In this document: positions 33,201 through 51,674 of the stretch, piece by piece
Numbering within the stretch: the stretch's first letter is position 1
Layout: the number at the start of each line of letters is the position of its first letter
Assembly: GCA_965285935.1 (NCBI GenBank)
Contig: OZ260662.1
Span: 67,704,001 to 67,768,000, forward strand
Direction of reading: 5' to 3'
DNA from: Ophelia neglecta
Taxonomy: Eukaryota
Length of the DNA: 64,000 bases
Position numbers and translations under genes: made by a program
The notes under the pieces: generated by a model
Database searches by the model: none
What the model was told of the DNA's origin: nothing
Seen by the model: only the letters and a program-made list of their open reading frames with translations

Positions 33201-35252
33201 GGTGGATATTTTGGAATATGAATATCATTAAGTATCCTAATATAGTAAGTGTTTGTAGTGAAGCGACGAGACATAGGCAAAATTGGAAGACATCGTGCAA
33301 AAACGAACCATTGAAAATTCATTATTTTTGCTAGTAGGCTTGTAAAGCTAATGAAGCATATAAGATTGGCGTACCTAAAAATAGTGTCACCACAGTCAAC
33401 GTTTAGCGCGAGCGTCACCAAGTGCAGCAGTTTTAAATACATGTAGATCATCATCACAACATTGTTATTACCATCCAACACAATCACATTATATAACAAC
33501 AGTGACGTTTGCATAATTCAATCAACTTATATGTTTGGTGAAAAAGTAATTACTTTGAAATAATGACTGTATATGTTTAGTTGAGTGCTGCCTATAGGAT
33601 CGAACTCGTCTCTGACATGTTTTATTTGATTGTTTTTCAGATGAGTTAGTGTATGATTGTTTGAGCCAAGAAGTAATTCTCTCAAGAAGACAATTCTGCT
33701 GGTGTGAAAGCGGGAACCACCAGCTCCTCAATGGAGTTACAGATGATTTGCGGGTTGCTGCTTTTTATAATCCAATTCGACGGAGGTTCGTTTTCTTTGA
33801 TAAGTTATGCCTCTATGTGAGTGCTGCCTAGATAGCATTAATATTACATACGCTTGAAATTGTACTCGCATGAATGTAGAAGTGTTTCCGGTAAGTGAAT
33901 GATTCTAGATACCAAAGCCTGGAAACTTCTTTTTTGCATGTGCTTAATGTGCATTCATAACATTGCAATGAATTGGAAATTCGTGCCTGAGGTCAAACCC
34001 GCCCGGTTCTGTTAACGTTACTCTCCCTGGGTATCTGTACTCATCGCTAATTGACCCAGTGTCAGCTAATTATGATGAATTGTGCACGCTGAGAGGAAAT
34101 TATGTAGCTCATTATTGCACCTGGTCCCTATTACGAAAACACACACGTGATGTTTTGCAAGTACAGACTACCTCGGCTGGTTTTTCCGCAAGAATATTTT
34201 TTCTTCATATTGAATGATGGTTTTTTTCACACTAACGCTAGCTAAGTTACGGCTTGTTATTCTATTTTCTTTAACGACAAACTGTGGCTTGCATTATTAT
34301 AGATACATTAATACATTTTATAACTGTATATATCATGTGACACACTCTAAAATAAAATGAGTGGGGCCAACACCTCTAGATGAGTTAACAATCCATCTCG
34401 AACGTTAATAATACACTACACATTACGTTAAGAAAAACACACGGTCATGTAAATGTTTTGTCGGGATTGCATTGTAGGCTGTAGTATACCCTGCCGGATC
34501 TGTGAGCACATACACCCACGATGGATGCAATGTTTTCTCGTTTAACCACATACTGATTAGGGTGCGGCGAGGTTTGGGAGAATAGGGGTGGGGTGAAGGA
34601 TTGAGGGCGATTAAGTAGATGTTTGCAGGAGGGGGTCGGGGAGATGACTAGGATCACGGTCTTATAGGCGTTAGGAGATAAAAGAATAGTCAAACTAATG
34701 CCAAAATGGCTTAAGTGATATTGTGGCTGAAATATAGGTTTGTTTATGACCGCCTGATCAAGTTTTATTTTCTCAGTACCAACACGAACCAGTAGGCTAC
34801 TTAAAAAGTTTGTATTAACAATAATCACAATGGCCATGTTTCTTTGCTTATTCGGGTGTTAATGGTTGGTGTAGCTAAGACCTTTTTTACCTTCAGATAT
34901 GTATTACTTAAACCATTTTGGCACCATGTCTTGTAGCTTAGGCCATGCTGGTATTAAATTTTGTAACTTAGGACATGTCGGTCATGGAAATCTTTGTAGG
35001 GATACATTCGAACGTTTTCTTTTTTTAGTGCCGTTTTGGCCCTAATAACAAAATGTGGACAAATCACCCCAAATAATGTCACTTTATTTTGATATCGTGA
35101 ATTGGAGTATACCATGCACCGAGTCAATGATTTTTGTCGAACAATAAGCAGTATCCCTCGCAATCCCTACCTGTCGCTTTCCTGGGCTCCGGTGGACGGT
35201 TAGCCTTTTCATTTGTTTTATGAGTCCTATTAATTCTGGGCTTGGATCATAT

Positions 35253-36617
35253 CCCAGCTAGCACAGTCACATTGGGCCAACGTTGTGCAATTATTCATGA
35301 TACATTGGCCCGATGATGTAACGACAATATCGGGCCAACGTAATTTTGGCCAGCAGGCCAACTATGGTGCAACGTCGTAGGCATAGGAATTGGGCCGACG
35401 CCTGGCCACATCCTAGCCAATCATTTGCTTACTACATTGGACCATCATAGGGCCACTGTTTGACCAGCATTAGTCGGGGGATACGTTAGCAATGCAGGCT
35501 TGTGTGCAATTGTGACTATTGAATTAAGTTGGCCCACTATTGGCCCAACATAGACCCATAGTGTGACCAACATTACTCCGTGGTATGTTGCCCTGTATAA
35601 GGCAGTATGGTAGAACAGTTAGACAAAGAAGAAAAAATACAGATGCACATTCAAATTACTTTATTCCACGAGTGATACAATTGTCGCCTTGGTTGGAATT
35701 ATCACTTTCCATCAGGGATGGAGTTAAGTCAGCTGTAAGGAAAAGGAAAGGTATGGGTTACTCATCAATCAATTGGTTATTCGGATCACAGAGAAATCAT
35801 AAACAAACCTCAGGGCGGGCATTTCAACTGGCAGTATGTACGCAACCTTTAAAGTGAACAAAGCACACTCCATTGTTTCATACAGGTTTGGTGAAAAAAG
35901 TTCAAATGTGACTTCTTTGCCACTATAACAAAACAATAGCCTTTTGTCCATTACTGAAAGAATACCAGAGATATTAATATTGCTTTTAGCTATGAAACCA
36001 AAAAGATACATCCACTTACCTATAGGAATCAGGTGATTGTTTTCAGTAGAACGAAATCGCGAAACCACCGAGTAGGATTCTTGAACGCGGGAAGACAAGG
36101 AAGTATAACTGCGCATGTGCGAAGTATTCGTGCACGGCCGGAACTCAGCGCACCAAATTACTCACTTTCCCATCGTCCCTTGAGTGAGAGTAGCGCCAAG
36201 AAATAGAGTAGCCGACATGAATATGCTACGGATATGGAATTTGCAACAAATTTGATGCTCAAGATGTATTAATATATGTCTAGTAGTTCGATCATTTTAA
36301 AATAAAAAAATCAAATGATCGCATGTCCTAAATCGGCAGCCAAAAGTCGGAGGAAAGTGTAGAAATTTCAACGTTACCCCAACGTTTAGAACCTGCATCG
36401 GTCCGACAATGTACATAGACCGTATCGCCGAAATGCTGTCGCCTTACTTTGGGCCAATGTTGGAATAACAGCATCGTCCCCATTTTGAACATACTGCATT
36501 GGACCGACTAAGTAAACAGGTTGTATCGCCGGAGTGCGGCAAAACCTACATTGGGCCAATGTGGTGATTTCGATCGCGATCTTAAGATGTCTGCCCAATG
36601 TGACTGTGCTAGCTGGG
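35253..36617. mobile_element. 1365-bp non-autonomous TIR DNA transposon, probably CMC/EnSpm(CACTA)-type, in the IgSF first intron
   Basis: Perfect 25-bp TIR CCCAGCTAGCACAGTCACATTGGGC / GCCCAATGTGACTGTGCTAGCTGGG, with AT on both flanks (2-bp TSD). Many subterminal TTGGGCCAA/TTGGCCCAA-like repeats at both ends. No transposase ORF. Confidence 0.85.
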
Positions 36618-39600
36618 ATTAGTATTCTTTATGACGAAGTTCTCGCGAGACAGAACGAGACAGGTTACAGTGCGACAGGCAAATGTGAAAGATTGACCAT
36701 TGTCGTGGCTTATGGATTGAGTTAAACATTCTTCTAGACGCCAGCCATGAACTCTAGTTTTGTCACAGATTATCACTCGTGGGACACAGACAGATTGCCT
36801 GTATTGTGTCAGGGAGGCTAGATACTTGGCAAGGTAAAATCTAAACTTTAATGTTTAAGCGAGAGTGTACGCGGTAAATAATTAGATGTTTCATAAAAAG
36901 GAATGTTTTTTATTTGAAAAATGGGCAAAATAGTCCAGGTTCCCAAATGTAAGATCTTCGATCTTTCATATTTATTGGGAATTATTTCTATGACGGCTAG
37001 TTCGGGGCGTACAATTTATCTATATTCATGTTAGCACTTATCAGGCGCTTGGAGGCGCTGATGGTTGTTCGCAGCGGCGCTGATAGTACCAGTGTCGACC
37101 ACTATGAGAAGTTGTGCAAGCCTGTTTGTAGTAGGCTCCACGGCTTTCCCTGTTGGTCTAACAGTTCATATTTCTTATTATTATGGCAAAGAACTCCACG
37201 ATCTATCAAGCAACAGTGCTGTCAATGAAGCTGCGCACCCGGGTTGCGCAGTGATGGTAGAAAAAGAGTGGTCGACGAGGACTTCGAAAAATCAAGTTTT
37301 ATAGACGCATACTACTAGTTAGCTACTGATAATTATTGCACGTTCATTAAGAATAGTTTAAGTGACCTTAAACACATTTTGTCGTTAGCTGAATAGGCTT
37401 ATATAGGTTACAGTAAAAACGATGAGCAGCTGCAGACACAACGACTAACGCCTACCCCGGTACTAGCCTACTATGTATTACTTAGGTGATTTGACAAAAG
37501 CCGCATGAGCCCTATAAAATATACACCCATTTTCATATAGTGGTGGTTTATAGACGTAAACTAAAGTAGAAGTGATCTGTTGTAAGGGGAGTGGTCAGGT
37601 GCTGTTCAGTTTTAGCCTCAAGACTGGTAATAGTAATATTTTATGGTTAGTGTTTGTTCAATGTTGGATATCGGAAGAGAGATCCTATAAGCTTCCCTCT
37701 TTAAGGGTATTCTTTTAAAATTGTCTAAGTAGATTTGAGATAAAAAAGGTAGTTTATTCTCGTCAGTGACCAGATTCTCTGCAACCCCGGCATCATTATT
37801 CTATTATATGCAGATGGCATGGTTTTTTTTCACAATGATTCTGTTCAATTTTGTCTCCGTTCTTTAATAAATATGCATCCAATTGTTTCTTCAACTGGCA
37901 ATCTATTTGCCAAGCAAAATGGGCAGAGCTGTTTAATTTAGTAGAATGACTATAATCATCTGTTACATGCATGGCGATGTCCCGAGAAAGATGTTGAAAG
38001 AAACATTTAACCCGAATCTTTTCAGTTTTGTGTCTCAAGTGTTTCTCTGACATCTTAACCATATCTATATGAACATAGAACAGATAAATGGAGCTAGAGA
38101 AAAAAAACAGCTAAGAAATATATGCATCCTTCCCCTCCCCCCCCCCCCCCCCCACAGCCCCGTATTTCGTCACAGTTTTTAGTCCTTAATATACCTATTA
38201 TTATATGCCTATATACGGCTGTATTTAGGAACGCCAGCCTGAAGACTATAGAACAGAATAATTAGTATCACATCAATAGCAGATCTTTAATATTCTCCTC
38301 TTGGGCCGCTGAGGAAGTCAAATGTTTTAGATAGAAATTCATCTTCCTCATCAAGAACAGTTGGACAAATATTTGATTTGATTCTATTCGTTTCGCCGGG
38401 ACATATTTTTTCCCATGCGCATAGGCTATAACTGCTTTTGCCCATAGATATGCAGGTTAAGGAGGAAGGTTTCTGATTATAATTCATCATAAAACATTAT
38501 AAGTTTACCCAGGCCGTGGTTTGGCCGTACAGCTTTAAAAAGGAACAGTTTTCCTCTGGATCTGCCTAAATTTGTATCATGCAATTCTGCTTGGAGATCA
38601 CGATTCGACTATCTTTCCTTACTTTAGGGGAAATCGATTAGGTAAAACTGGTGACGGAATGCCAAAAATGTGAACGAAAAATAAAGCTGATCAGCCTGAT
38701 TGGAATACTTGAAGGTTGTGGGCCATGAGCGTCCCGATGCTGGTGGTATCAGTGTTACTATGTAGGCCGGCAGTCGACGGACCCGCACCCGCACGCGCTG
38801 CTCGTGATATACGTACACTACTAACGTCTGAAACTCTTCAAGGAGTTGTGTTGCCATCGTCATCCTCAATAGCTGTGAAATAAATGGTGACGGAAGTGTA
38901 TGACGTTTTAAACTCCATATAAATTTAATATATCTACCTGGCGGCGATATAAAGCTACCAGGGATTGACCAGTCCTGAGTTTTGAAGCTGATCGATTGTT
39001 TCATAACAGTATGGGCAACAATTAAGTAGCTGTTTAGGCCCATGTACGTGTTAGCCATGTCTTATTACATTTAATTAACTTCACAAATTAAATTAGTTAT
39101 AATCTTCTCCCTGCTGTTTTGTAGTGTAGATTCTATATATATGTTTCGGATTGAGATAAGCTATCGAGAAGATGTGACACCAGAGCTATTTTGAACGGTA
39201 ATCTTTTGGTTACAATTGGTGGCAGCAAAAGTTGCGGGCCGGGGTTTCACTTAACAAGCTCGTAAAGAATACACTGGAGGGTGATTTCCATGGGCCTTAA
39301 TGTACTTCTCAGGTGGCCATGACTCTCTTTTCATGAATATGATATCCCTGGAGAGATTCTAAACCCGCTCAACAGTTCGTCCATGCATTTTCGTTCAATG
39401 GTTGAAAAACTGATAAAAGAGGTTTCCAAGATCCATCCTGATAAAGCCTACTGTAGTAGTTCCAAAAAAAAATAATTGGAGACTCGCCAGCTTAATATAA
39501 AGAACACCTCCCTTTAAGAGCATGCGCACAAAAGGAAAGTGAGAAAGCCTTGGGGCCACCTTTCTTTATTACCTGCCTGTAGTTTAATAATGATACCAGC

Positions 39601-40304: not shown

Positions 40305-40562
40305 GTTCTTTGCTGACGATGTTAACTAAGGGTCAGATGTTTGTGATCAATGATGGTGAGAGCGTATCGCTGGATTGTCAGTTTTACACGGACCATTTCA
40401 ATCTGTTTGATAACCCTGTCATCTGGCAGAAGGCACAACGCCACGAGACCTCACAGATTAATATAATGGGAAATGTTAATCCACCTTTTGGACCTACAAA
40501 AAGGTTTAAAGTCACGTTTTCTCCTGAACCGCCTCGCTTTAGAATGGACCTCAAGATTGATC
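40305..40562 (+). CDS. IgSF gene exon: N-terminal part of Ig domain 1 (V-set-like)
   Basis: Acceptor ttttgtcttcgtgcag|G, donor C|gtaagt. Translates (G)SLLTMLTKGQMFVINDGESVSLDCQF...PVIWQK...RFRMDLKID. Confidence 0.9.
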
Positions 40563-43500
40563 GTAAGTAAACTACTGAACGCACATGTATATAGAGAATA
40601 GGATTATTATCTCTCTCTCTTATTAATTGTAGAAATACGCGTTTAGGTCTTATTTTTGTTCAGACGCAATTTAAAACGCATGATAATTCTGTAAAAAGAA
40701 GGCGAGGTAATATGAATTTACTGACAATTGTTCTACAACCCACTGAAAATACCTTCGAAAAAATGGATATCTTCCCAAATATATATTTAGTTAATAAGGC
40801 ATGGAAGTGGCTGCCCAAAATAATGAGGAGAAAATTAACGCCATCTAAAACATGTGCAGGTTTTTGCTTTCATTTTCTTGACAATTTCTATACCTATTCA
40901 TCTCGAAAACCAGTTTTGCCTGAGTGTTATTTCGCAGTGAACCCGTCGGCGACCATTAAGTATCCAAATGGACACTAACACGTACGGACATGCCTGTGCT
41001 CAGCTGTTCGCTAGCTGATTGCTCTGTTTTGTCATTTCCTTTAGATGTAACACTTGAAGACAGCGGCAATTACACATGCGAAGTTCGGGGACCACATTCT
41101 ACCTCCCTTGGATACGTGACACATTATATCTTTGTTAGAGGTAAGTAACCCTCTCCCAGACCGCCGTACGGCACGAATTAGCCTGTCAAGCTATTACCTG
41201 ATAAGAGATGGCCCGAGATTCCGATGAATATCGTGAGAACGTGTGGACTTTGTAACTTATGGTAGGACTACCAGTCCACGTAGAAAATAGCCTCCTATGT
41301 TTAAATCAAGTGAGTCAAAGTAGGAATACCCATCGACTCACTGGCTCATTTTTTTGTCCGGGAAACAGTTTTGTAACGTAAGATGGGTCAGTATCCTGTA
41401 ATTTATTTTTTAGGATTCTCACTTAAAAAAAAGAGTAAAACTCGATTTCAGCTCCCGTGGAAGCAATGTTGATCACCAAGGAGAATGAGACGGACCTAGA
41501 TTTAGACTACGAGGAGCCCCCGAGAGTGATTGTTTTCACAGAAGACGAACCTAGTACTTTGAGATGTATTGCGCGAGGGGGCTACCCACCACCGGAAGTT
41601 GAACTATTTATCGGACGGAGGGATATCACCGGCACATTTGGTCTGTCTCATTCCGCCAGACTGATGGGTGAGAGGGGTATGAGACTGATGGAGTACAGCA
41701 CCGAGCGCTGGACACACGACTTCATGGCGCGTGCCTCCGATGACGGTCGTAAGCTCAAGTGTGTGGTAACGGTGCCAGGAGTGGAACCCAATATATCCTT
41801 GATACGTATGAGCGTCCACTGTAAGCATCTTTTTAAATATTATCATTTGTATACACCACCTTAATCGTCAATTATGTCGACGATGGCAAATCACTGAAAC
41901 GCATCAACCAGCATCTTCAATTCTTGAAGTGAAACGGACCTCGTAACTAACCCAAGTTTGGCGGGCTTTATCCATGAAGGGATGTGGTATATATAAGGGA
42001 TAGACTTGTCAGCCGTGGCTGGAATGCTCCCTCGGTGTAATCACTTTGTGACAGAATTAGCCGTGGAGTGTATTCAATCATGTCCCTTCCCGTGCTGTTG
42101 CCGGCGGGATCCCTAATGAATACGTCTGGGGAAAGACGAATGGACCCTCCGCGGGGTCCGTAGAGGCCATATTGTAACTCTGCCAGCCAAAAGGCCAAAT
42201 AGTCTAGCAGGGTATTAACCCCATGTCTGATTTCTGTCGTTCCGCTGTTTTCACCAGACTTCGGTCTGTAATCCGTATTTTAGATATAGCTCGCCGATTG
42301 TATTTCTCAGGTCCATTTTGCTGCCCAATAATAAAGTCTTGAGTCGAAAGTCGTGCTATCTTAACCATGACATGCGATTACAGCCGTATCTTACAGTAGC
42401 TGTTTGAAAAGAACAATTCACCTATATACAGGAATTTTTGTTATCTATGTGTAAAATTACCTCTTTTAGGAACTTGAAAATTGTTAACGGTTAAAGGAAA
42501 CATCATACTAAGATAATGTGACATCTCGTGCAGATTCCGGAAATTAACATTGGACCTTTCTTTTAGTTGCCCCTATCATCCACTGCGAATCCAACGAAGC
42601 ATACCTCGGTGACAAAAATGTATTCATCCGCTGTCGAATCACAGCGAGGCCCACTCTGTCGGCACTATTTTGGATTCTGGATGAAAATGGAACACACGTA
42701 TCTGAAGGAGAGGTTATCAACGAGTACTGGACCTTAGTACGGGTAAGTTCATTGATATAGGTTCTGATTACTTAACCTTAGTACGGGTAGGTTTATTGAT
42801 ATGGGTTCTAATTACTTGACCTAAGTACGGGTAGGTTCATTGACATGGGTTCTGGTTACTCGACCTCAGTACGGGTAGGTTCATTGGCATGGGTTCTGAT
42901 TACTTGACCTTAGTACGGGTAGGTTCATTGATATGGGTTCTGTGTACTCGACCTTAGTACGGGTAGGTTCATTGATATGAGTTCTGATAACTTGACCTTA
43001 GTACGGGTAGGTTCATTTACATGGGTTCTGAGTACTGGATATAAGTACAGGTAAGTTCATTGATATGGGTTCTGATAACTTGACCTTAGTATGGGTAGGT
43101 TCATTGACATGGGTTCTGACTACTCGACCTTATTACGGGTAGGTTTATTGATATGGGTTCTGATAACTTGACCTTAGTACGGGTAGGTTCATTGACATAG
43201 GTTCTGAGTACTGGATCTTAGTACGGATAGATTCACTGACATGGGTACTCAGGTATCATTTATATATACAACTAAATAAAATATATCTCATTTTACATCA
43301 TATGGTATATTATAAACCTACTCAATTAGGTATAGTCAAAATACAATAGTACGTTTATTTTAAAGAGCCTTCGCGTGTATCACGAAAGGACCATTTTCGC
43401 CAGTGCTGGACGACACTGACACCGTCACTCCCCTGGGACGGTGTTCTACTGTTTATATTAAATTGCTCAACTCTTTGGTCATCTTACTCTAAGTGAAGTC

Positions 43501-45284
43501 TTTCAATACTATGAAACTATGATAACAATGATTAACGCGGGGAAATTATGTGAAATGATAGCTATAGCCCAAGGTCTTTGAAATGAGCTGCAGTTGTGTT
43601 GTCAAGTGATTGTTCCATTTGTTGTACATGTAAGTGGATAGGGTAGTAAATCCTAGATAAACGAGTCCTTTAAATATTTAAGTACCATAGCAAGGTCTAT
43701 AAGTTCTGAAACAAGACTAATGTAAGCTTAAACACGGTAAAATTGTTATCGAAATACAAAGGTTGGCAATTTTTTTAGCACATAGGCCTAATAGTTGCAA
43801 ATGGATGTATTTTTCAAAATATTAACTAGTTGTTCAATCGACTAAGAAGAAAAAGTGTAACTGTCATGGTGATTTTCACATTGATGATCACTTAACTTTA
43901 TGTTATATGCTGTCTCGGAAAATAACCATTTAACCGCTTCTTAACATTGCTTTGGTGTTTTGGAGATTGTCTTGATGAATCCCTGATGGCGTCGGACAGG
44001 TGACACGGGTCACTGATACTCGAAATAGTCCATCAGTTCCATGGAGAGATCCTCGGGTCTGAAACAACACATAACCTAAATAAACAGGCAGTGAATGGCA
44101 TGCCATTTGTTTGGACCATTCACTAGGTATTTTTCAAGTATAGGATCATTGAGAACAGATGCTCGGCAAATATCTTTCAAGCGATGGCCATTTTTTCGAG
44201 CCTACTATTCTGGATCAGTTGCCTCGAAAATATCGATGTACTTTTAATGAGCAGGTCAAACCCAAGAGCTTCAGGAAACCAGTGAAGGCATGCTGCCAAT
44301 TGATTAGGGCTTTCCAAATGCAGCTGTACAAACACAATTAATGAAGAGGCTTAAAGACCCCCCCCCCCCCCCCCCACCACCACCACCACCACCACTCTCA
44401 CGATGATGTCCCCATTTAACATAAAGCCAAACAAAATAATTTAACAAAAGATATTTTTTATTTTATAGGATGACGATGAAGAAAAGATAATCACATTGTA
44501 CATGCGCCGAACTAAACCCTCCAGTTATCGTTCTTATCGGTTGGTGGCAGAAAACAGCGTGGCCGTCAAAACACAGGAAGTAAAACTTGTACAAAGTACG
44601 TAATGTGCCATCTCTCTTCCCTCATTCCTAACAGATACTAAAACATTTTAGGATTGTCTGCTTTGAATTAAGGATGATATATCACGGGCATAAGCTGCTA
44701 ATAGTCATAGTTGTAATCTTCTCCACTAGAAGAGAGAATCTGGATTACTACTACACTGGCAGGGTATTATGGGCACCTCCTGCAAGGGTTATTAAATGTG
44801 CTCATATTGTAACACAATGTACCACTTGAATATATTTAGTTTTCAAATGCAAATTTTCGCTGTAAGCGGTGAACCAATCCGAATTATGGCTCTTTCTTGT
44901 ACTCAATTTTAATTGTATGAATTGAAACTCGCTTCTTCTTATCGCTTTTCAAATAATGTCATTAACCTTTTTGGTGAATGAAAGCAAGTTTTATGTGGAG
45001 TTATCATGAAAAGTGTGTGAAATGTAATGAACACGCAAAATGTATCTACAGTACATTCATTTTTTTCAGAATTTAGAACAACGCCTAAACCAGTGTCTAC
45101 GTCCAGGCAGAGTGGGCCTGGATCTAATACGGCCAGCCAAGGCGGAACTCGGTCGGGATATAACTACATTAACGAGGCAACATCCACATTATCGCCCAAT
45201 CTGTCTCAACTTACATCGAGACTCAAAATAAGCGTACTCATCTTGGTAGGAATGCTCACAGTTCATGGCATACTTCTGAGATGA
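40305..45284 (+). CDS. Multi-exon gene for a 3-Ig-domain, probably GPI-anchored cell-surface IgSF protein (architecture like lachesin/DIP/IgLON; family not assignable). Exons 40305-40562, 41045-41140, 41452-41820, 42567-42742, 44469-44595, 45070-45284; the 5' coding exon lies upstream
   Basis: I spliced the exons by hand. All introns are GT-AG, with phases 1,1,1,0,1 plus an upstream phase-1 intron. The exons total 1241 nt, and 1 nt from the upstream exon gives 414 codons ending in TGA at 45282-45284 with no internal stop. Ig motifs: LDC..VIW..DSGNYTC; LRCIARGGYPPP..DDGRKLKC; IRCRITARP..LFW..YRLVAEN. Hydrophobic tail ISVLILVGMLTVHGILLR*. Confidence 0.9.
41045..41140 (+). CDS. IgSF gene exon: C-terminal part of Ig domain 1 (not in the ORF track)
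   Basis: Acceptor tttcctttag|AT, donor AG|gtaagt. Translates HVTLEDSGNYTCEVRGPHSTSLGYVTHYIFVR, containing the canonical DxGxYxC. Confidence 0.92.
41452..41820 (+). CDS. IgSF gene exon: Ig domain 2 (C2-set/CD80-like)
   Basis: Acceptor gatttcag|CT, donor T|gtaagc. Translates APVEAML...TLRCIARGGYPPPEVELF...DDGRKLKCVVTVPG...MSVH. Confidence 0.92.
42567..42742 (+). CDS. IgSF gene exon: N-terminal part of Ig domain 3
   Basis: Acceptor ctttcttttag|TT, donor CGG|gtaagt. Translates FAPIIHCESNEAYLGDKNVFIRCRITARPTLSALFWILDENGTHVSEGEVINEYWTLVR. Confidence 0.9.
42722..43249 (+). repeat. Tandem array, 12 x 44 bp; each unit is the last 21 nt of the exon plus the first 23 nt of the intron
   Basis: Unit 1 is gagtactggaccttagtacgg|gtaagttcattgatataggttct. 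Units start every 44 bp from 42722 to 43206 with no indels. Confidence 0.97.
44469..44595 (+). CDS. IgSF gene exon: C-terminal part of Ig domain 3
   Basis: Acceptor tttttattttatag|GAT, donor A|gtacgt. Translates DDDEEKIITLYMRRTKPSSYRSYRLVAENSVAVKTQEVKLVQ. Confidence 0.85.
45070..45284 (+). CDS. IgSF gene last coding exon: S/T/G-rich stalk and GPI-signal-like hydrophobic tail
   Basis: Acceptor ttttttcag|AA. Translates KFRTTPKPVSTSRQSGPGS...LKISVLILVGMLTVHGILLR*, with no cytoplasmic tail after the hydrophobic stretch. Confidence 0.85.
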
Positions 45285-46561
45285 TAGGTATCCGTGTGAA
45301 AGAGTGTTAACTTACAAAATTATATTAGCTAGTCGGAACATCACTCTCCGTCTAAAGTGGTCAAAGGAGGATATGTACTCGTGTGATGCAGGCGTGCAAA
45401 TAGAAATGCTGGCCGAGACATTCAGGATGTGACTGGGATTTCTTCAGATGTATTTAAACGTTTTACACAAACCACCAAGTGTGTGATCTTTAATTGATGA
45501 AGACGTCATGGGTGTGGTATTCATTCAGTTCAGTTTTCTAAGTAAGCTTTCATCTATCCACATCGTAAGGTTTGGACCGCGCGTCAACACATTGCCAGTT
45601 TTCGTCATTTGTATCAAATATGGATGTGGTGATGAAGCATAGCTTGCGAAGAATTACTAACAATATCGTACACGTGTCATACACATATTGCGCTTTTCTG
45701 CAACACGTAAAAAATGTATATCTTCAAACTCACATCGGAGGAAGAAAATACCGGATATGTTCTGAAGAAAATGAGATACATGTATTTTCTATCGCTTCGA
45801 AACAATTAATACTTTTATGGGAACGTTTTTTTCCCCGGATAGCGAGCAGTGTTGTCCCGGAACTTGTTAACCCCGTTGAGGGAACAATATCTGCTGCTAG
45901 TGGGATAACATTGCTGCTTGGGGAAATATCAAACTTGCCAGGAAGTCAATTCTGTGATGGGAACTGATTGGAAAACATTTTTTCTGGCTGTTCTAAGCTG
46001 CTACATGTTCCGGTTGTTTTTTGCCATACTAGATTCGAGCGTGGTCTCTTTAGTATGGGGAATGTAGAATTTGTACACAGGAATTATATTTGCTTATAAT
46101 GCGGGCATTTGGCAGCCATAACAGGACCAATATGATGATTTTTACAAACTCACTATATAGTTATTTTTATGTAGAACTAAAGCTTGTATCTTTCCGCGTT
46201 AAATAGATAATCATGTGACTTTTGTTTGTGCGCAGCTGCAAACATACTATCAATTATTAAATCCGTTGCAGTGACCGGTCGGTTTGATGGAGTAAACTAA
46301 CAAGAAAATCACATTCCACTTTTATCATTATATTAAAATATATATCGTTATGACTGTATTAACTCAAAGTAAATGTGAGTTTTCCTACCCTAGTAAATAC
46401 AAATAACGATGGATGATCAGTGTAGTTACTTTAATTGGCCATGATATGTATATCTTTTTATCATGATGATAGATTGTGATATTGATATTGACCAAAAATG
46501 TAGCTGTCTATTTCTGTTCTTTGTAGTTGTCTTTCGTCATCTACAAATAAGAGCTGCTTAT

Positions 46562-49771: not shown

Positions 49772-51415
49772 ATATTAGTAAATATACTGGTGTATTAGGC
49801 ATACTGGTAGTTATTTTGATTCGGGCCTCTCATGATGCAGGAAATGAATAAAAAAAGGGGCTGAAAGAAAATAAAACAAAGAAGTATTAGGCCTAAATGA
49901 ATCGCGGTCACATTAGCCTATCAAGGCATGATGCTTTGTATACATTTGTGATATATATATCAGCGTACTCGAGAGTGGTGGGTTGCATCCTTTTGCAACG
50001 GTTCGAGTATCAATTTACCTGGCTCTCACTGCTAGTAACCTCCAAGTTATTGGCTAGTGAGGCTCGTAACTATTACCACAGTACGCAGGATAGTTAAATT
50101 TGTACTCCGTTTGTTCTGTCTAAAAGTTTTGAAACAAATAAATAAAGAACTCTCTATACTATTTTCGCAATGTGTACTCTTTATTTGGACGTTACAAACC
50201 TCTTGGAGTGGGAATTTGATTAAAATTCTATACTCTCTAATAGGGTGCTTTAAATCGATTCGCAAGAACTGAGTTTCTCAGACGAGGATGTGACCTCGAC
50301 CTTCTTCATGAGCATTTAATCATGGAACATGCCGTGACGAACAACATTTCATCTTAAATTCAGATACAAATAATATCGCTCTTCAAATTTTGATTCCCAA
50401 GGAAAAGGTCGACATTCCCGGGAAACTGCCAGTGTTTAATGCCTAACATTGCGTTAAAAGAGGAATTTTCCGAAAATTATCATGCATATGGCAATGACGG
50501 CTAGCTATTTCCATACTCAATGCGTCAGGTATAATGTGAACTTACTTGCTGCGGACCTGCTGTGAGCTAAGCTTTTGTGGTCTCTGCGAGCGTGGACCTC
50601 TGAAAGCTTCCTTTTGACGTAACTAATGGGCGTTACGACAATTCGCTGTGCGGCAAAGCCTCTCCACATGGCCGTAGCTCTACAAGATTGGGCGCTTTAA
50701 TTACCCCGCGTAAATATGAATTCGAGCCACACAATCCGTTACTCACTTGTAAAATATCTCGAGACATCAACGCTTTAGAACGCTGAGTGTCAGCAATAGA
50801 CTCAAAGGCAACTCATTGTATTTGGGTCCTTCTGATTCGTTTGTTGAGACAAAAAAATCACGCTAACGAGGCCTTCCAATTTCTTCAGACATCTTCTATC
50901 GTTTAATTTGTCATGATGCCTAGACCTGTGTTTTAACTAGTCGAATTTTCACCACATGGGCGGGTTATAAATTCAAGCATTGCCAATTTCATATACATGT
51001 ATCGTGAAATAATGATAAGTTAAATGGTATGAAATTTATTTTCAAACAACAAGCAGCTCAAAACCAGTACCCCAGTAACGGAGTAGGAAAGCACAAATAT
51101 AACTGTTCGATCAACGCACTACTTTATCAAGAGACAAGCTGTACAGTCTATAAATGTTACCTGACGAGGTAAATGTTTGTAACTTTCGGTAAAAAGAGTT
51201 CCTGTATTATCTACAGAATGGAAGTTTAGGATCACTGAATATCAACAATTTCCCGTTTCGACTTATTTCACCAAACACGCGATACATGTTTCTATAATTA
51301 ACGCAACAACTTAATACTAAAAGTTCATTAGGAGAACGTCATACATTAAGTTGTTCTTACTAGTCTATTTTATACTACTTTGTACAACTGAGTCTTTCAA
51401 TGAGAGAGTAGCATG

Positions 51416-51674
51416 AAACACGCACCCAAAGATCTTTTGACTTAATACATGATTTGTTTCACGGTCCAACCAAAGAAGAAACACGCACCCTAAGGCATGT
51501 TGATTTAATATAAGATTCTTTTTGGGCCCAACCAAAGAATAAACACGCACCCTTAAACATTTTCCTTAAGTACATGATTTTTTTCGGAGCCAAACCAAAG
51601 AAGAAACACGCACCCTAATACCGTTGAGTTAATACGTGATTCCTTTCAAGGCCCAACCAAAAAGGAAAGGACAC
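51416..51674. repeat. Minisatellite, about 4 x 62-63 bp
   Basis: AAACACGCACCC anchors at 51416, 51479, 51541 and 51604, each unit ending in an aaccaaa-containing block. Confidence 0.9.

Follow-up and report, generated by a model that had tools for sequence, protein, structure and literature searches.

A 44-bp minisatellite across an exon/intron junction reiterates the splice donor of an annelid immunoglobulin-domain gene

The host gene and its family

The sequence analysed here (the window) is a 64-kb stretch of the Ophelia neglecta genome (contig OZ260662.1, positions 67,704,001 to 67,768,000), to which all coordinates refer unless another locus is named. A gene of seven exons was modelled between 33731 and 45284, with canonical GT/AG intron ends and one open frame of 431 aa. 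Its exons are:

33731..33785, + strand, probable exon 1, putative and signal-peptide-like, the least certain exon
40305..40562, + strand, exon 2, first part of a V-set Ig domain (PF07686, E 0.0015, under the curated cut-off)
41045..41140, + strand, exon 3, second part of the V-set Ig domain (gene model and Pfam)
41452..41820, + strand, exon 4, CD80-like C2-set Ig domain (PF08205, 21 bits, at the cut-off)
42567..42742, + strand, exon 5, first half of a third Ig domain (paralogs and homologs), its last 21 nt being the exon part of array unit 1
44469..44595, + strand, exon 6, second half of the third Ig domain (weak I-set match, E 0.097)
45070..45284, + strand, exon 7, Ser/Thr-rich stalk, hydrophobic C-terminus resembling a GPI signal (putative), and stop codon

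The Pfam matches of the individual exons are weak yet consistent, giving V-set, CD80-like C2-set and I-set domains. Both termini of the 431-aa protein are hydrophobic, and the C-terminus makes a GPI anchor likely. Using exon 4 as the query, phmmer retrieved 330 relatives at E values up to 0.001, and a word-based protein search returned no match among 82 candidates. Two of the ten relatives looked up were hypothetical Ig proteins of Capitella teleta (ELT94953.1) and Helobdella robusta (ESO09242.1). Compared at the protein level, these unnamed annelid proteins share the host layout of V-set, C2-set and third Ig domain followed by a hydrophobic C-terminus, and the Capitella protein is about 50% identical to the host protein over residues 22-361. 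A metagenome scan gave a single 17-residue match (L133), too short to serve as an ortholog.

The gene belongs to a local family, with at least nine paralogs on one contig (G000:C2, L013-L021), two of them within about 35 and 120 kb. Intron 2 is apparently absent from L016 and L019, and exon 2 seems to be split further in L015, L017 and L020. In intron 1, the stretch 35250-36620 was seen by eye to end in long inverted repeats, like a non-autonomous DNA transposon. A literature search that covered mostly freely available papers and their main texts found no paper on the host gene or on annelid junction arrays.

Structure, origin and alleles of the array

The junction of exon 5 and intron 5 forms the first unit of a tandem array, for which Tandem Repeats Finder (TRF) reports a period of 44, 11.9 copies, 84% matches, no indels and a score of 736 (42725-43246), the highest among its eight rows in the window. 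When cut in register from 42722, the array comprises 12 units, each of 21 exon-derived and 23 intron-derived nt, with the donor GT falling at 42743+44n. The features of the array and its immediate surroundings are:

42722..43249, + strand, 44-bp x 12 junction-spanning minisatellite (mirage), from TRF and the register cut, unique in the genome
42740..42748, + strand, authentic donor CGG/GTAAGT (unit 1)
42758..42760, + strand, in-frame TAG, 16 nt into the intron, met by transcripts that use a downstream donor or retain the intron
42784..43188, + strand, span of the nine GG/GTAGGT pseudo-donors
43048..43056, + strand, full-consensus pseudo-donor CAG/GTAAGT of unit 8, GT at 43051
43224..43232, + strand, unit 12 donor CGG/ATAGAT, dead in the assembled allele (unit cut) and intact on a second allele (43227 G, 43231 G; DNA contigs)
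43275..43280, + strand, AATAAA hexamer just 3' of the array

The sequence-only reading that preceded this analysis had placed the array and its first unit correctly, with accurate coordinates throughout, and its account of the donors was borne out once the units were cut in register: CGG/GTAAGT, nine copies of GG/GTAGGT, one CAG/GTAAGT and one destroyed copy. The description of unit 12 as destroyed applies to the assembled allele and fails on the second, where DNA contigs give GTAGGT. The nine GG/GTAGGT copies, eight preceded by C and one by T (CGG and TGG), have their GTs at 42787, 42831, 42875, 42919, 42963, 43007, 43095, 43139 and 43183. Units 2-12 thus hold ten intact pseudo-donors and one dead one, and the array contains 11 of the 15 + strand NRG/GTRRGT motifs of the window. 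The units are arranged head to tail as a minisatellite, the authentic boundary lies in an outer unit (by homology), the splice signal is reiterated in the intron and the unit is specific to the locus. By these features, the array classifies as a junction-spanning minisatellite (a "mirage", of the F7/CBS type). Another minisatellite, at 51415-51668 (62 bp x 4.1; TRF), lies 3' of the gene.

No two units are identical, and their mean divergence is 14.5%. Shared variants mark the blocks 4/6/10, 7/9/11 and 8/12; in addition, units 6-7-8 and 10-11-12 have diagnostic variants in common and look like a higher-order duplication. Unit 12 differs from the real exon by 1 nt, and the interior units by 2-4 nt. 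Judged from these variants, the pattern is one of ordinary block-wise minisatellite turnover. No excess conservation of the donor motif was found among units 2-12, where variation affects 5 of the 9 donor columns and 18 of the 35 remaining ones (Fisher P=1.0, a column test of low power with 11 units).

The first donor, at 42742, is read as authentic and its position as ancestral. In all nine paralogs on the same contig, a GT stands at the same codon boundary, and the exon 5/6 junction is spanned by the alignments of 15 of 21 homologs of at least 250 aa, including Capitella ELT94953.1 (this set omits an 1872-aa repeat protein and includes several near-duplicates from one cluster). A search of the 762 Mb genome for the unit pattern, with up to two mismatches allowed, gave ten matches, all inside the array, and a 732-bp DNA search returned one locus. 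Furthermore, of the 37 paralog donors that were mapped (35 exactly), not one lies under a TRF array scoring at least 50; a short TA run at the donor of L019 scores 47. Because the unit is confined to the array and the paralog donors carry no such array, the array is best read as a gene-specific local duplication, neither a dispersed satellite nor a family trait.

A second allele was examined in contigs from three runs (X1, X2 and X3) of one sample from one study, perhaps the assembly's own sample. The intact GTAGGT of unit 12 (43227, 43231) is found in X1 and X2 contigs. In X1 and X3, at about half depth, a contig joint leads from 42758 to 43147, skipping 388 nt with six letters between, and an X2 contig begins three letters before 43147 and extends to 43632, into unique flank. 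These contigs are consistent with a second allele 382 nt shorter, probably with about three units. Taken at face value, this short allele retains some three donors without unit 8 and still runs into a stop three codons later. Since graph contigs can collapse repeats, the length difference serves as a hint, and the sequence differences of the second allele are firmer. Contig depth over the array is a sum over contigs and was left out as a measure of copy number. Differences at 43040 and 43049 were not counted as allelic, since they come from several contigs at above-flank depth and were taken as other units placed on unit 8. The sample is highly heterozygous over 41000-45600, for example with 29 differences and six gaps in a 291-bp contig at 44797-45083.

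Competence and consequences of the repeated donors

The sequence-only reading had proposed scoring the donors with a splice model, and U1 pairing and a position weight matrix (PWM) were used here; both find the copies competent in sequence and place unit 8 above the real donor. Computed with the genome's own U1 5' end, the duplex energy of the real donor is -11.4 kcal/mol; the nine copies fall between -10.0 and -11.1, unit 8 reaches -12.1 and unit 12 has -1.9, while the other donors of the host gene span -3.0 to -12.3. A PWM built from 41 family donors (training median 8.8) scores the real donor at 8.8, the copies at 7.5-7.6 and unit 8 at 9.8. The closest paralog, L013, carries AGG/GTAGGT at this very junction. 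Concealment of the copies by RNA structure was ruled out, as the RNA of the region is predicted to fold less than shuffled sequences (z +3.98). Because U1 pairing, the PWM, the L013 donor and the weak folding all indicate competence, the copies do not appear to be silenced by their sequence alone, and position would have to silence them. The perfect donor of unit 8 could leak, and it is the likeliest site to do so.

What such use would produce had been derived correctly in the sequence-only reading, from the TAG at 42758-42760, which lies in frame past the real donor and is met whichever later donor is used. In conceptual read-through, all 11 later donor positions lead to the same stop after 323 residues, at least 153 nt upstream of the last junction, so that a truncated protein or a target of nonsense-mediated decay (NMD) is predicted. 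Use of unit 8 would define an exon of 484 nt, versus 176 nt for exon 5. A stable secreted form is doubtful because the 323-aa product breaks off midway in the third Ig domain. A conserved secreted read-through isoform was also considered and ruled out: the read-through tails of the nine paralogs (2-50 aa) are unrelated to one another, and none is shared.

One of the closest architectural parallels is the 37-bp VNTR of human F7 intron 7, in which the first unit likewise covers the exon/intron boundary and a ladder of pseudo-donors stands between the authentic donor and the one acceptor that they share. The F7 transcript is spliced from the first donor alone, except where a site further on matches the consensus perfectly; in minigenes, such perfect sites took about 70-90% of splicing, in competition with an authentic site that is weak (CV 74) (PMC1557585). 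The F7 array is polymorphic, with 5-9 units, and for the worm array a second allele is indicated. The F7 unit includes 4 exonic nt and consists of identical copies of a weak donor, whereas the worm unit includes 21 exonic nt and its copies have diverged (84%), with a strong authentic donor, one perfect copy and one dead one (PMC1557585). Minisatellites of the same architecture occur in four further human genes: two pseudo-sites are used besides the authentic site in CBS intron 13 and IFI6 (6-16) intron 2, and the authentic site alone is used in LMNB2 and PDGF intron 4 (PMC1557585). The worm array differs from these four in that all its later donors lie behind an in-frame stop, so any use of them would be unproductive.

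In amphioxus, the "mirages" of Adh3 and of the globins BflGb6 and BflGb9 are described as minisatellite-like tandem duplications of an exon-intron boundary (PMC3087553). Their unit identity of 81-100%, haplotypes of 6 versus 3 units and boundary units standing outside homogenisation liken them to the worm array, as does the presence of cryptic signals in many, not all, units (PMC3087553). They belong to another phylum and to other genes, and their units measure 150-160 bp in the globins and 10-72 bp in Adh3, compared with 44 bp in the worm (PMC3087553). First-donor use was demonstrated by experiment for F7, and RT-PCR suggested normal splicing in amphioxus (PMC1557585; PMC3087553); in the worm it is predicted. 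The available parts of two other papers (PMC2812944, PMC12783039) give context and contain no direct case of a junction array. Minisatellites of this class have been described before in human and amphioxus genes, and the worm array adds one more case.

Altogether, the array is most probably a repeat of ordinary kind that does not act as a switch. With good confidence, we regard it as a tolerated, nearly neutral junction minisatellite of local birth, in which the first donor is taken and the extra donors are likely silent. Slippage or unequal exchange at the boundary between exon 5 and intron 5 would have produced the founding 44-nt duplication. The interior may then have been filled by descendants of one copy in which the donor was slightly weakened (+4 A to G) and the exon part had drifted, with units 1, 8 and 12 remaining exon-like. 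By the precedents above, exon definition and a preference for the proximal site would hold splicing at 42742; the rare transcript spliced from a later donor, with unit 8 the most plausible candidate, would meet the premature stop and be removed by NMD. The array would be tolerated and nearly neutral because splicing is held at the first donor and leak products are removed. Slippage that began at the junction, which the sequence-only reading had offered as its fallback, fits the local origin, the block-wise turnover and the structurally different allele.

The main alternative, which we consider unlikely, is that a real share of splicing goes to the later donors, chiefly unit 8, and that alleles with more or stronger copies therefore yield more NMD or more truncated, unanchored protein. 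Such a role would draw on copies that are competent in sequence, on a unit 8 that outscores the real donor, on the premature stop common to all later donors and on alleles that appear to differ in copy number; moreover, some pseudo-sites are used in human CBS and 6-16, perfect sites compete in F7 (PMC1557585), and thousands of human loci show an association between the length of a tandem repeat and splicing (PMC10078293). However, the donor positions of the array are no more conserved than its other columns, the nine paralogs lack it, unit 8 would have to define the enlarged 484-nt exon, the 323-aa product would probably be unstable as a secreted form, and a small leak could occur without being adaptive. 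In the sequence-only reading this idea took the form of a U1 decoy tuned by copy number, which finds no positive support in the donor columns, the paralogs without arrays, the unenriched sampled minisatellites described below or the published use of first donors. A stronger form still, that the array is a heritable dial on the surface dosage of an annelid Ig adhesion or recognition protein, with the long allele, through the perfect donor of unit 8, losing a measurable share of its transcripts to NMD or to truncation and no such loss from the short allele, which lacks unit 8, seems rather improbable to us. If it were true, a heterozygous animal would provide a built-in, allele-specific test, in a lophotrochozoan, of proximal-donor preference versus a stronger distal site; and if use of the later donors scaled with the number of copies, the array would be an invertebrate VNTR that sets gene dosage through unproductive splicing.

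U1 binding also suppresses premature cleavage and polyadenylation (telescripting). The array might accordingly be a U1-loading platform, whose copies, unused in splicing, bind U1 and suppress cleavage at the AATAAA at 43275, or whose loss of copies permits an intron-terminated secreted form. The hexamer lies 26 nt past the last unit, with 11 U1-complementary sites just upstream, but the motif occurs at chance level in the window (67 on the + strand, one per 955 nt), and each of the nine array-less paralogs carries an AATAAA no more than about 1 kb from this donor. Both facts weaken the idea of a shield against polyadenylation; in addition, the real donor alone already lies within 533 nt of it, and the paralogs' read-through tails are unrelated, which together make this role very improbable. 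That the array is an assembly artefact, or a mobile or dispersed satellite that landed at the junction, is equally hard to credit: contigs from the same sample do give a path skipping most of the array, but a collapsed or expanded assembly would not yield units so diverged, sample contigs cover all 30 bins, the unit occurs nowhere else in the genome, and conserved protein-coding sequence makes up its first 21 nt.

Read as a nearly neutral junction minisatellite, the array still offers a natural substrate for the study of splice-site choice, with ten competent donors, one of them stronger than the real one, placed behind a stop, and with two alleles, probably of different length, in one animal.

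Junction arrays elsewhere in the genome

The frequency of such arrangements was assessed in ninety 10-kb stretches (900 kb) taken at round-number positions on four large contigs, which represent 474 of the 762 Mb. This sample holds 55 minisatellites of period 15-100, with a mean period of 39.5. By random placement, about 240-480 donor-spanning arrays would be expected across this repeat-rich genome, assuming 100,000-200,000 donors (310-705 from smaller samples). Three of the 55 were found by eye to lie on junctions, above the 1-2% expected, in an unsystematic count with two of the three in one gene. In an exon-model test, 1 of 47 arrays fell on a junction, against a control mean of 0.4 and maximum of 2; this test is insensitive, having missed two of the three by-eye cases. 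A strong donor motif is present in 5 of the 55 consensus units (6.4 in shuffles, 4.0 in random windows) and an acceptor-like motif in 3 (2.5 and 4.2, respectively), so neither is enriched. The enrichment of repeats at splice sites that the sequence-only reading had suggested looking for is thus not shown by these two crude tests of the 900-kb sample, although the arrangement itself is common in this genome.

The three arrays found by eye comprise two donor arrays and one acceptor array. At L067:7955-8531 (G000:C1:140007955-140008531), a 96-bp donor-spanning array follows a putative GC-rich, AT-hook-like exon predicted from sequence. Its donors (7999, 8104, 8200, 8296 and 8491) are spaced by multiples of 3 and the frame is open through all units, so that later donors would insert in-frame repeats of about 32 aa; compared with the exon 5 array, it appears the better candidate for a productive donor ladder. 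A 46-bp x 8.5 array at L067:2538-2926 begins within the end of another putative exon of this AT-hook-like gene and has lost the GT in its interior copies. Finally, at L043:5146-6729 (G000:C1:8005146-8006729), a 43-bp x 36 array in a pellino gene (PF04710, E 5e-12) places its last unit over an intron/exon acceptor, the mirror image of the exon 5 donor array.
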